Source: Eledone cirrhosa (lineage: Eukaryota). From it: a stretch of 64,000 nucleotides of DNA. The translations under genes and the position numbers were made by a program. The notes below the pieces were generated by a model, which saw only the letters and a program-made list of their open reading frames with translations, was not told the DNA's origin and ran no database searches. Below are positions 2,385 through 60,948 of the stretch, in pieces; position 1 is the first letter of the stretch; every line of letters starts with the position of its first letter. The stretch covers positions 4,650,001 through 4,714,000 of the forward strand of contig OZ024746.1 of assembly GCA_964016885.1 (NCBI GenBank). Direction: 5' to 3'.

Positions 2385-2456
2385 CTCCCCGGCGGGGAAT
2401 CGAACCCCGGTCTCCCGCGCGACAAGCGGGGATACTTACCACTATACTACCGAGGA
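2385..2456 (-). tRNA. trnD-GTC: tRNA-Asp (GTC), anticodon-loop variant
   Basis: Same as 1265-1336 except the anticodon loop is TT-GTC-GC instead of CT-GTC-AC. Flanks are homologous to the first copy. Confidence 0.85.
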
Positions 2457-6898: not shown

Positions 6899-6965
<67 letters not shown>

Positions 6966-7258
6966 TACTGTATATTACAGACAGAGTATATGTTCAATTT
7001 TGTCCCATAGTTAAGATAGTTTGTTTCTTCATATATGATATGCCAAGATATACCAAGTGTATAACAATGAATATAGTTTGCAAAGATATTCACTTCTAAA
7101 ACGATAACTTCATTATTACCTCCGTGAACTTCCATCATCTCATGAATTAAATGATCAGCCAGTCAAATTATGCAAATCAGGCCGATCAGTCACTGTGTAT
7201 TTTTGAAAATAGCATATATTTTCACTAGCTCTGACAGTTTGGCAGGTGAACAGTGAGC

Positions 7259-7300
7259 TGTACTGATGAAGGGTGATACCCAGAAACATTAGTGTCTGCA
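7259..7300 (+). ncRNA. Type I hammerhead ribozyme candidate in TA-flanked island 6962-7410
   Basis: tgta-CTGATGA-A-GGGT gat ACCC-A-GAAAC-ATTAGT-GTC-tgca. Stem I has 4 bp (one G-U), stem II is GGGT/ACCC, stem III is near-palindromic and the triplet is GUC. Confidence 0.7.
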
Positions 7301-7451
7301 AGAATGAACGGTTCATTCTACTGACATGGCTATAAAATTGAGGCTTGTTTGCATAATTGCAAACGAATCGAATGTTATTATTAATATTCGAAAAAGTCAA
7401 ATTACATTTATTATATATATATATATATATATATACTCATACACACACATA

Positions 7452-12615: not shown

Positions 12616-13520
12616 CTTTATATGTAACTAACACTACCAACAGTGATTGTACTAGCTTTATATATAACTAACACTACCAACACTTTATATATAACTAGCA
12701 CTACCAACACTTTATATATAACTAACACTACCAACACTTTATATATAACTAGCACTACCAACACTGTATATATAACTAGCACTACCAACACTTTATATAT
12801 AACTAACACTACCAACACTTTATATATAACTAGCACTACCAACACTTTATATATAACTAACACTACCAACACTTTATATGTAACTAACACTACCAACACT
12901 TTATATATAACTAGCACTACCAACACCTTATATATAACTAGCACTACCAACACTTTATATATAACTAACACTACCAACACTTTATATATAACTAGCACTA
13001 CCAACACTTTATATATAACTAGCACTACCAACACTTTATATATAACTAGCACTACCAACACTTTATATGTAACTAGCACTACCAACACTTTATATATAAC
13101 TAGCACTACCAACACTTTATATATAACTAGCACTACCAACACTTTATATATAACTAGCACTACCAACACTTTATATATAACTAGCACTACCAACACTTTA
13201 TATATAACTAGCACTACCAACACTTTATATATAACTAGCACTACCAACACTTTATATATAACTAGCACTACCAACACTTTATATATAACTAGCACTACCA
13301 ACACTTTATATATAACTAGCACTACCAACACTTTATATGTAACTAGCACTACCAACACTTTATATATAACTAGCACTACCAACACTTTATATATAACTAG
13401 CACTACCAACACTTTATATATAACTAGCACTACCAACACTTTATATATAACTAGCACTACCAACACTTTATATATAACTAGCACTACCAACACTTTATAT
13501 GTAACTAGCACTACCAACAA
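12616..13520. repeat. 27-bp minisatellite (TTTATATATAACTAGCACTACCAACAC) x ~33
   Basis: Direct tandem units. Confidence 0.95.
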
Positions 13521-40118: not shown

Positions 40119-40190
40119 TTCCCCGGCGGGGAACCGAACTCCGGTCTCCCACGTGACAGGCAAGGATACTTACCACTATACTACCGAAGG
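40119..40190 (-). pseudogene. tRNA-Asp pseudogene
   Basis: tRNA-Asp sequence with several substitutions in the acceptor and anticodon stems, a T-stem mismatch, and T-loop GTTCGGTT (B-box A lost). Confidence 0.8.
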
Positions 40191-40721
40191 TAAGTATCGG
40201 TTTGGTTAGAATGATTCAGGGGTTTGGTTAGAATGATTCAGGAAAGAATCGCTGGACGGATTTTACGGGCAAAACCAACTGACAAGAGATAGATCAGCAA
40301 CATTTAATAAGCGGGGAGGCAGGAGGTGCAAAAAATCTGAAAAATTGATAAGCGGTGGCGGAGACGATTATTCGAAACCCGAAAGTATGCATTTAACGGT
40401 TTTCCAGCTGACAACAGCCACAGTGAACAAGATCATAGAATTTCTTTCCTATGGCTGAAAAAATAGAAACATATCTTTTATATATACTAAATACCGGTAG
40501 TGTTATATTTAAAGCCCAGTTAATAGATTGTAAAGTAAAGTTAATCATTTGTAACTGCTATAAGACTTGATGCAACGTTGCTATTATTTTGCTTCCAAAA
40601 TGAAATCTCATACGAGTCAATTACCTTTTCATTGTTGCGACCTTAAATAGTTTACTGTTACATGAAAAGACTTTGTAATAACATCTCTGCAAATGGTAAA
40701 TAGGTGTTATATTAAAAAGAA

Positions 40722-40782
<61 letters not shown>

Positions 40783-40951
40783 AACATACGGTATATTGCC
40801 AAATATACTATACATACATTCATGTATACATCGCTATTTCAGAGCACCAATCCTAATTCCTAATTTTTGCTGGAACGGCAATCGCTCTGTATAATCAGCT
40901 CCTGATTATTACTGGAATTATATAAGAATCCAGCTTGCTTCTATAATTTTA

Positions 40952-41036
40952 GGCGAAAGCAGGGGAGTACGTGGCTCTGATGAATGTCAACCAGCGTGAA
41001 ACACACACACTGTCAGCTGCTCTCCTTTCTTTCGCC
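40952..41036 (+). ncRNA. Type I hammerhead ribozyme with extended stem I
   Basis: gtggct-CTGATGA-ATG tcaaccag CGT-GAAAC-AcacacacT-GTC-agctgc. Stem I is extended through an internal loop by ggcgaaag/ctttcgcc and aggggag/ctccttt. Confidence 0.8.
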
Positions 41037-41261
41037 GAAAAGAAGTAAGTGACATAGTCACTACTTTAAAACTGATAGCGTATGGTCTTCTAAATGTTTT
41101 TAATTAAACATACGTTATTGCCAAATATACTATACAGACATTCATATATATATATATATATATGTGGATTTTCTAATCTACCAGTCTCTTCTTAGCGCTG
41201 AGGGAGACCATCACCATTCTATTAATGTCGATATAATTCTCATATCGATATTATTTGGGTA

Positions 41262-58060: not shown

Positions 58061-58649
58061 ATATAGTACAGTATAATTCTTTCTAATTTGGACACAAGGC
58101 CAGCAATTTGTGGCAATGGGGAAAGCCTGTTATATTTACCCCAGTACTTAACTGTTAGTTTATTTCATAGACCTGAGAAGGATGAAAGGCAAAGTTGACA
58201 TCGACGGGATTTGAGCCCAGAACGTAGAAAGTTGTCATTAAACACCACAAGGCACACTGTCCAAATCTCCACTGATATGCCGTCCCCCGGGAAACGCCTT
58301 CTCCATTCTGTCCGCCGGGGCTGTGGGGAGGCCACCAATATGATTGACTGACTTGTCATTTTATCATGTACTTGTTATATATCTATATCTGTCCAACACC
58401 ATATGATGAAAGCATGTTAACGACCCAAGTGACAACCGTTCTGTTTAGTGACAGGTCAACACTGGGGTTTAACCTATAACAGACCATCATTCCACATGTC
58501 ACTCAAACAGTAAGTACTCAAGATTACATTATCTAATATCCACTTTTTATGGTCGAAGTTATTTTAAGCTATTTCTAGCAGATCGAACGTGGTTAGAGAT
58601 TCCTTTGTTGATATACTATAGTTTTTTGTAAGTTGTGAATAAGTGAATT

Positions 58650-60445
58650 CCATCAGGACTGACCTAGGGTTGAACAACAACAGCTATCTACTGATCATAA
58701 GTGTGTTCCATCAGGACTGACCTAGGGTTAAACAACAACAGCTATCTACTGATCATAAGTGTGTTCCATCAGGACTGACCTAGGGTTAAACAACAACAAC
58801 TATCTACTGATCATAAGTGTGTTCCATCAGGACTGACCTAGGGTTAAACAACAACAGCTATCTACTGATCATAAGTGTGTTCCATCAGGACTGGCCTAGG
58901 GTTAAACAACAACAGCTATCTACTGATCATAAGTGTGTTCCATCAGGACTGACCTAGGGTTAAACAACAACAGCTATCTACTGATCATAAGTGTGTTCCA
59001 ACAGGACTGACCTAGGGTTAAACAACAACAGCTATCTACTGATCATAAGTGTACTCCATCAGGACTGACCTAGGGTTAAAGAACAACAGCTTTCTACTGA
59101 TCATAAGTGTGTTCCAACAGGACTGACCTAGGGTTAAACAACAACAGCTATCTACTGATCATAAGTGTGTTCCAACAGGACTGACCTAGGGTTAAACAAC
59201 AACAGCTATCTACTGATCATAAGTGTGTTCCAACAGGACTGACCTAGGGTTAAACAACAACAGCTATCTACTGATCATAAGTGTGTTCCATCAGGACTGA
59301 CCTAGGGTTAAACAACAACAGCTATCTACTGATCATAAGTGTGTTCCAACAGGACTGACCTAGGGTTAAACAACAACAACTATCTACTGATCATAAGTGT
59401 GTTCCATCAGGACTGACCTAGGGTTAAACAACAACAGCTATCTACTGATCATAAGTATGTTCCAACAGGACTGACCTAGGGTTAAACAACAACAGCTATC
59501 TACTGATCATAAGTGTGTTCCAACAGGACTGACCTAGGGTTAAACAACAACAGCTATCTACTGATCATAAGTGTGTTCCATCAGGACTGACCTAGGGTTA
59601 AACAACAACAGCTATCTACTGATCATAAGTGTGTTCCAACAGGACTGACCTAGGGTTAAACAACAACAGCTATCTACTGATCATAAGTGTGTTCCAACAG
59701 GACTGACCTAGGGTTAAACAACAACAGCTATCTACTGATCATAAGTGTGTTCCAACAGGACTGACCTAGGGTTAAACAACAACAGCTATCTACTGATCAT
59801 AAGTGTGTTCCAACAGGACTGACCTAGGGTTAAACAACAACAGCTATCTACTGATCATAAGTGTGTTCCAACAGGACTGGCCTAGGGTTAAACAACAACA
59901 GCTATCTACTGATCATAAGTGTGTTCCAACAGGACTGACCTAGGGTTAAACAACAACAGCTATCTACTGATCATAAGTGTGTTCCATCAGGACTGACCTA
60001 GGGTTAAACAACAACAGCTATCTACTGATCATAAGTGTGATGCAACAGGACTGACCTAGGGTTAAACAACAACAGCTATCTACTGATCATAAGTGTGTTC
60101 CATCAGGACTGACCTAGGGTTAAACAACAACAGCTATCTACTGATCATAAGTGTGTTCCAACAGGACTGACCTAGGGTTAAACAACAACAGCTATCTACT
60201 GATCATAAGTGTGTTCCAACAGGACTGACCTAGGGTTAAACAACAACAGCTATCTACTGATCATAAGTGTGTTCCAACAGGACTGACCTAGGGTTGAACA
60301 ACAACAGCTATCTACTGATCATAAGTGTGTTCCATCAGGACTGACCTAGGGTTAAACAACAACAGCTATCTACTGATCATAAGTGTGTTCCATCAGGACT
60401 GACCTAGGGTTAAACAACAACAGCTATCTACTGATCATAAGTGTG
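58650..60445. repeat. 58-bp minisatellite x ~31
   Basis: Unit CCAWCAGGACTGACCTAGGGTTAAACAACAACAGCTATCTACTGATCATAAGTGTGTT, head-to-tail with no spacers. Confidence 0.97.
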
Positions 60446-60948
60446 ATGCAACAGAAGCGTTATATGCCTCCAATCTCCTCCTCCATCACAATTCCACCTA
60501 TCTTATCCCCACCCCCTTGTCCAATGCTTTCATCTCTCTCTCTATCTATCTATCTATCTATCTATCTCTCTCTACTCTCTCTCTTCCTCTTCCTCTTCCT
60601 CTTCCTCCACCTCACTCTCTCCTCCTCCCCTACCCCTCCCCCAACTAATTAATTAAACTCTACAATAAAATATTGCTTTTCAACCTTGTAACTATAACTG
60701 GTTCTGTGGATCACAAACACCGTCTCCAAGTGATTGTTCTTTTATATATATATGTGTGTATGTGTGTGTGTCTGTGTGTGTGTGTGTGTGGGTGTGTGTG
60801 GGTGTGTGTGTGTATGTGTGTGTCTGTGTGTGTCTGTGTGTGTGTGTCTGTGTGTGTGTGGGTGTGTGTGGGTATATGTGTGTGTATGTGTGTGTATGTG
60901 TGTGTCTGTGTGTGTGTGTATGTGTGGGTGGGTGTATGTGTGCGTATG

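Follow-up and report, generated by a model that had tools for sequence, protein, structure and literature searches.

An aged retrozyme copy of Eledone cirrhosa and its family: a Penelope-type insertion footprint and a likely circular RNA template

The window analysed here, a stretch of 64,000 nucleotides of the Eledone cirrhosa genome, contains an aged, single-ribozyme retrozyme copy that likely entered a TA microsatellite through the action of a borrowed Penelope-like reverse transcriptase (RT)/GIY-YIG enzyme copying a circular RNA monomer. This copy is an ordinary, aged and decayed member of family A, a new family of the non-LTR retrozyme, a known type. For the family, mobilization of Penelope type is very probable and, judging by the distribution of variants among genomic copies, a circular template is quite probable. 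Features that were absent from an earlier note on this DNA, namely two fixed 3' ends, an inverted second arm and a Penelope-type tail, point to the mobilizing machinery, and the sharpest evidence of a circle was obtained in sister family B rather than in family A.

The window copy (Table 1) is 5'-truncated at position u1 of the family unit, and its 3' end is the tail-less end, u43. The segment 40781-40823 recurs at 41105-41145 with a period of 324 nt, the second copy differing by a 2-nt deletion and 2 substitutions; the direct repeat noticed earlier at 40781 and 41105 is thus real, as is the setting between TA tracts, although the element ends at 41145 and not at 41152, which takes in TA target. 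A monomer of about 324 nt, as initially proposed, holds for this copy but not for the family, in which the majority unit (29 copies) is 316 nt long, non-coding and contains 123 G+C (39% GC); the difference is due to two private 4-nt insertions in the window copy (40933-40936 and 41001-41004), which also carries about 12 substitutions relative to the family unit. The terminal redundancy is not a fixed terminus; the 5' ends of the family are spread over the whole unit, and the 43 nt mark only the point where this 5'-truncated cDNA stopped. Arms exceed one unit in 23 of 99 cases, and 8 of these 23 stop in the same 22-nt bin as the window copy, such that a redundancy like its own is frequent without being fixed.

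Table 1 Features of the window copy and loci of related families (u, position in the family A unit).
Feature	Position	Strand	Remark
Retrozyme family A, single-armed insertion	40781..41145	+	1.14 turns of the 316-nt unit
First u1-u43 copy (redundancy)	40781..40823	+	contains 8-bp hairpin 40790-40809, covarying across families
Internal copy of the u44-u78 segment	40824..40858	+	34-35 nt; optional Penelope-type 3' tail in other copies
Type I hammerhead with extended stem I	40952..41036	+	core 40977-41014, stems II and III altered; C41014 precedes the predicted cleavage site
Conserved structured module, u285 to u43	41073..41145	+	terminates at the inferred reverse-transcription start site
Left target, (AC)21 then (AT)n microsatellite	40724..40780	.	
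Right target, (AT)n tract	41146..41163	.	AT overlap joins element to tract
Family B loci	L231, L262-L314; G000:C1, e.g. 5388000-5393500		near-perfect two-armed arrays
Families C, D, E loci	L291:3215-3718, L153:1812-1894, L087:100-215, L154:622-730, L315-L344		

Five open reading frames (ORFs) of the window had no Pfam match, and no ORF of at least 150 aa overlaps the element. Around it, the window contains a decayed tRNA copy (40119-40190, minus strand) 600 nt upstream of the element and pointing away from it, two tRNA genes with anticodon GUC (1265-1336 and 2385-2456, minus strand), a perfect 22-bp duplication (40199-40242) and homogeneous arrays of 58 bp (31 copies, 58639-60454) and 27 bp (32 copies, 12656-13519). 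A second, unrelated type I hammerhead (7238-7310, plus strand) lies within a TA-bounded repeat (about 6964-7411), the family of which is also present in L056, L165 and L181/L215.

The hammerhead of the window copy was recovered by a motif scan as well as by reading the sequence, and comprises CUGAUGA (40977-40983), stem II (40984-40997), GAAA (40998-41001) and GUC preceding the predicted cleavage site. The type I core and stems I to III are recognizable at the sequence level in both the family majority and the window copy, in keeping with the earlier assignment of a type I hammerhead with an extended stem I, whereas no hammerhead match was found in Rfam, whether judged by gathering score or by E ≤ 10. 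Upon folding, the 101-nt hammerhead region had a z score of −3.4 and the 324-nt unit one of −6.7. Compared to the family, the hammerhead of the window copy is decayed: stem II is AUGU/GCGU instead of ACGC/GCGU, the palindromic stem III, which in family A pairs between two copies at −8.3 kcal/mol (−2.8 for the window copy), is gone because of AC slippage, and the active fold is computed to be 9 kcal/mol less stable, with an equal gap to the minimum fold. A palindromic stem III is suited to dimeric cleavage, according to the accessible text of PMC4209133; in a partly available account of frog retrozymes, 8 of 9 dimers failed to cleave. Because the window element has one hammerhead only, a monomer cannot be excised from it. 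In one subfamily of family A, the basal pair of stem II is U-U (u200) and the site reads GUU (u226); it was amplified nonetheless (27/147 loci). Inside family A alone, base-pair counts are shaped mainly by neutral decay and the loss of CpG, and they are not counted as evidence of covariation. As a separate observation, the flanks of L001-L220 (711 kb scanned) contain about 60 other hammerhead matches from ten or more families, with several head-to-head pairs.

A search of the 3.0-Gb genome yielded 3,022 candidates, of which 40 were scored and showed 91-93% identity over the full length. Exact patterns of the hammerhead core and of the end motif matched 208 and at least 1,372 times, respectively, the latter dispersed, compared to none for the reversed controls; given that the end motif is kept exactly in 31/98 passes through the unit, this corresponds to roughly 4,000 passes genome-wide. 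For closer analysis, we used 170 loci from three sets, namely the 30 best matches, 70 of the first 100 listed core matches and 70 regions of the first 100 listed end matches, with 8 duplicates dropped. Family A is dispersed, mostly as copies of 0.2-1.5 units, about 3.5% diverged and short. Longer-than-unit and permuted copies, for which the earlier note had proposed to search, are abundant, and 20/244 arms cross two or three hammerhead sites; no third unit was listed after any of the exact dimers, and long arrays were searched for and none found. With regard to the collapse of arrays as a possible cause of the short copies, arm length shows no relation to divergence (rho 0.06, p = 0.49, 116 loci). 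The two A/B dimers, L021 and L031, are either later duplications or very young. There was no RNA-editing bias among the shared changes of family A (23 A>G vs. 23 T>C, p = 0.62). The element, with TA-joined ends, was present in contigs of five sequencing runs of unspecified kind, and one 340-nt contig (run X4) consists of the unit plus an overlap, which fits a circle and a tandem alike.

The ends of these copies differ sharply in kind. While the 5' ends are spread randomly over the unit, the 3' ends of 244 arms fall mainly into u36-52 (125 arms) and u70-90 (85 arms); the exact ends are u43 and u77/78, 34-35 nt apart, and each meets (AT)n through 2-4 shared letters. A (TA)4+ setting was found for 167/210 family A ends vs. 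166/2,285 of 28-mers from the window (7%). An inverted, head-to-head second arm is present in 33/66 end-selected loci. Among the 62 head-to-head pairs, both ends could be classified in 43, of which 39 combine a tail with a tail-less end, 4 have two tail-less ends and none has two tails (p = 1 × 10−8). A shared 5' extension was looked for and is absent. Target duplication, which in metazoan non-LTR retrozymes exceeds 4 bp where it exists, was also looked for and none was found, with the proviso that TA is present at the 5' junction, too, in 45/91 single-arm loci, obscuring any such duplication.

Thus, family A shows variable 5' truncation, partial tandem copies, an inverted arm, a tail at one end and location in (TA)n. 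Penelope-like insertions are described, in the accessible part of PMC8557442, by the same combination of 5' truncation, partial tandem, inverted arm, a 30-40-bp tail often at one end and a (TA)n bias. According to the available portion of PMC11167929, no elements other than the Penelope-like ones have such a tail, and its length equals the distance between two internal sites at which the RT starts in vitro; the enzyme, a dimer by prediction, nicked each of the two strands of AT-rich DNA and started at these sites. Candidate enzymes are at hand in this genome, which contains many elements combining an RT with a C-terminal GIY-YIG and a CxxxxCxxC linker of the Neptune/Nematis type. Of the six inspected two-armed coding RT+GIY-YIG insertions, five show the one-sided extension (the ends of the sixth lay outside the view), with TA ends; in L172, a family A insertion lies inside the TA tract that ends a coding Penelope-like element. 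One such element (L201:3809-6622, minus strand) has an open 938-aa RT + GIY-YIG frame and a pseudo-LTR of 1.07 kb; the tail of its family is about 58 nt, and the hammerhead scan gave no canonical match. Another coding family (L204, L205, L207 and L210) has a minimal hammerhead with a palindromic loop 3 in its 3' end. In 50 Penelope-like loci from among the top 150 of 10,595 GIY-YIG candidates, in which clades with an N-terminal endonuclease would be included by chance only, there was no retrozyme homology or module match beyond nested insertions. No RT/GIY-YIG ORF was found within the retrozyme or fused to it, and the retrozyme as an autonomous Penelope-like element is thereby ruled out. Non-autonomous multicopy elements have been noted in an alga (PMC8557442, accessible part).

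The region around the start sites recurs in the related families C, D and E, which have differing hammerheads and lengths of about 330 nt in the cases estimated by eye, and the start-site module occurs in at least four families with different hammerheads. In 12 sequences, which are related and from which the structure itself was derived, 89% of the cells of the module pair and both sides have changed in 8/26 pairs (5/8 in the main hairpin), with 0/500 shuffles as high. The main hairpin sits 14 nt upstream of the tail-less end. On this comparative modelling, the module is a candidate enzyme-binding element. We venture, with somewhat more doubt than belief, that an animal retrozyme superfamily may share a structured RNA 'loading site', by which a dimeric Penelope-like RT would be positioned on a single circle with its two active sites 34-35 nt from each other, both nicked strands copying that circle at once. 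If so, the young 310-nt family would be an active example and a minimal substrate for rolling-circle target-primed reverse transcription, and the pseudo-LTRs and tails of Penelope would be explained as well. Family E contains the octamer ATGCAAAT, a promoter element in newt satellite 2; there was no ORF beside 30 family E loci. A Pol III box or octamer is absent from families A and B.

A route that would account for the footprint starts with transcription of a source locus that carries at least two hammerheads. The transcript would self-cleave, and a host ligase of RtcB type would close the resulting monomer; such closure of other retrozyme monomers was shown in vitro, according to the accessible part of PMC7229834. 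The enzyme would bind the module (u285-u110), nick both (TA)n strands and prime at two internal sites, u43 for one strand and u77/78 for the other, aided by the AT overlap of 2-4 nt. Each cDNA would then circle through the ligated site until a random stop, and the two cDNAs would be joined head-to-head, or a single arm would survive. The window copy could be a one-arm product of 1.14 turns, or else a longer array that collapsed later. For the proposal that it derives from slightly more than one unit of a circular RNA, a circular template remains the best explanation, except that the circle would be of 316 nt, not 324.

In family A, of the 60 arms at risk at the ribozyme site (u227), 2 stop within 5 nt of it and 58 pass, and indels are not raised there. 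Subfamily assignment agrees between passes of one arm in 15/18 comparisons and between arms of one insertion in 25/28, compared to 3,057/15,431 (20%) between loci; the remaining comparisons, 3/18 and 3/28, are apparent two-template cases, and a time-structured RNA pool could be an alternative source of the concordance. Far more resolution is offered by family B, which a flank revealed: it is 310 nt long, about 69% identical to A, has a different hammerhead and the same two ends, and matches exact patterns, by which it was counted, 8,920 times in dispersed two-armed arrays. Its arms (54 regions) have a mean of 4.6 units and reach at least 26. The tail is at one end only in 41/44 cases, the other 3 being cut off or unclassified, and 40/54 regions were chosen by the tail-less end, such that insertions with two tails could not appear among them. 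Of the two-armed insertions, 34 were informative (L273 and L282 excluded). They comprise 17 haplotypes and carry 9 variants, each of which is private to one insertion and fixed throughout the units of its two arms (up to 24/24), and no fixed difference specific to one arm was detected. Minority bases make up 0.09% of the B arrays (120/132,422). Of the 442 crossings of the ribozyme site, 422 are identical, 16 carry a one-base insertion that is fixed in all passes of two insertions and 4 carry a substitution; none has a pass-specific indel. Comparison of these sequences points to a bottleneck of one monomer, that is, repeated copying of the same monomer. The circle is favoured because repeated copying of one closed monomer predicts both the pattern of fixation in B and the clean crossings of the site. 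Family B is young and was probably active recently. At positions 188 and 242 in stem I of family B, A>G recurs on several haplotype backgrounds, a weak hint, given the small numbers, of editing of the template RNA.

The same Penelope-like enzyme might have copied, instead of a circle, an uncleaved linear head-to-tail transcript of a genomic multimer, with the hammerhead as a passenger, which we regard as unlikely. This model was proposed for the anole element, for which priming in vitro was as efficient with ribozyme mutants and did not require hammerhead cleavage, while reads ending at the site were absent (PMC11167929, accessible part); it likewise predicts no stop at the ribozyme site, and is compatible with the many long source arrays of family B and the spread of the GUU subfamily. 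However, linear multimers predict mosaic arrays, in contrast to the scarcity of minority bases in family B and the fixation of private variants in every unit of both arms. Furthermore, family A has only 10 exact dimers and no arrays, unless old ones have decayed, and yet includes arms of 818 and 1,106 nt with independently diverged units.

A monomer bottleneck would equally arise if the template were a ribozyme-cut linear monomer on which the RT, each time it reached the 5' end, jumped back to the 3' end of the same molecule, and the few discordant passes in family A suggest that template switches occur. RT jumping is expected to leave failed or sloppy jumps, as inferred from other RTs. 5' ends do not accumulate at the cut site in either A or B (in B, 0/99 lie within 6 nt of the site vs. 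4.2 expected), and the B crossings, as noted, have no pass-specific indels, which makes this alternative decidedly improbable. Linear multimers or end-to-end jumping therefore fit less well than repeated copying of a closed monomer.

As a third alternative, the unit could be a truncated pseudo-LTR of a coding Penelope-like element, with multimers formed by tandem duplication of DNA after insertion. Such satellite birth was proposed for frog retrozymes in a source available in part, coding elements of this genome do bear hammerheads in their 3' ends, L021 is a later duplication, and exchange within B arrays took place after insertion (L276 and L290, the latter a local exchange). Nevertheless, long arms wrap around the unit and do not enter an ORF; the changes in the tandem passes of A are mostly private; of the 91 single-arm loci, a single pair has an identical 5' junction flank, and its 3' flank matches, too; and duplication cannot readily equalize two inverted arms in 34/34 B insertions. 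As a general route, it is largely refuted by the wrap-around arms, private changes and equalized inverted arms, and we consider it very improbable. Finally, the possibility that the direct repeat is a host target-site duplication around a solitary hammerhead, which the earlier note had named as a potential refutation, can be practically dismissed, given that the same sequence, with its 1,372 exact matches, belongs to the element and ends copies with unrelated flanks, and no point in its favour was found.

The copying of RNA circles by Penelope-like enzymes has been proposed for animal retrozymes since 2014-2020 on the basis of co-occurrence and shared ribozymes. In the present case, there is a Penelope-specific footprint at the ends of retrozyme insertions, together with the one-monomer bottleneck in a young sister family. 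The start sites are now defined exactly, a candidate binding module with covariation is at hand and the 310-nt unit offers a substrate, such that the circle step and the origin of the tandem and tail structures of Penelope become testable in the existing in vitro system.

Among known systems, the metazoan non-LTR retrozymes, as presented in the accessible part of PMC7229834, resemble family A in having a non-coding unit of 150-450 bp, one type I hammerhead, a GC content under 50% and no LTR features. The unit and hammerhead of the window copy support its earlier identification as a non-LTR retrozyme, whereas a plant LTR retrozyme, with type III hammerheads in two LTRs, is ruled out by the type I topology and the lack of fixed LTRs. 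Head-to-tail copies with at least two hammerheads occur in family A as the exact dimers and are a much stronger feature of family B. The retrozymes of PMC7229834 form arrays, in contrast to the mostly dispersed copies of family A; their Penelope-like mobilization from a circle was proposed in the same source, the accessible part of which contains no description of fixed start sites, a tail, inverted arms, TA targeting or a cephalopod family. Neither a cephalopod retrozyme nor retrozyme footprints with a tail or two arms were found in the literature covered, namely the main texts of freely accessible papers. Vertebrate non-LTR retrozymes (bioRxiv 10.64898/2026.07.22.740005, accessible part) similarly co-occur with endonuclease-bearing Penelope-like elements and include many solo monomers; there, the link to Penelope consists of co-occurrence and pLTR homology, whereas here it is the insertion footprint, a pLTR homologue not having been found. 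That source attributes vertebrate arrays to local amplification and calls elements 'active' when they have two hammerhead-bearing units, a definition that does not cover the window copy.

Endonuclease-bearing Penelope-like elements (accessible parts of PMC8557442 and PMC11167929) share with family A the 5' truncation, partial tandem, inverted arm, tail at one end, (TA)n bias and two internal start sites. Unlike these elements, retrozyme A has no ORF, a closed 316-nt unit and a short AT overlap with the target; moreover, the use of one start site per arm is near-exclusive here, whereas both strands used the same sites in vitro in the available text of PMC11167929. A further likeness is to the circular-template proposal for Penelope-like elements (PMC4209133, accessible part), in which ribozyme-cut, ligated circles give rise to cDNA of more than unit length; that proposal is tentative, and the genomic tests reported here bear directly on it.
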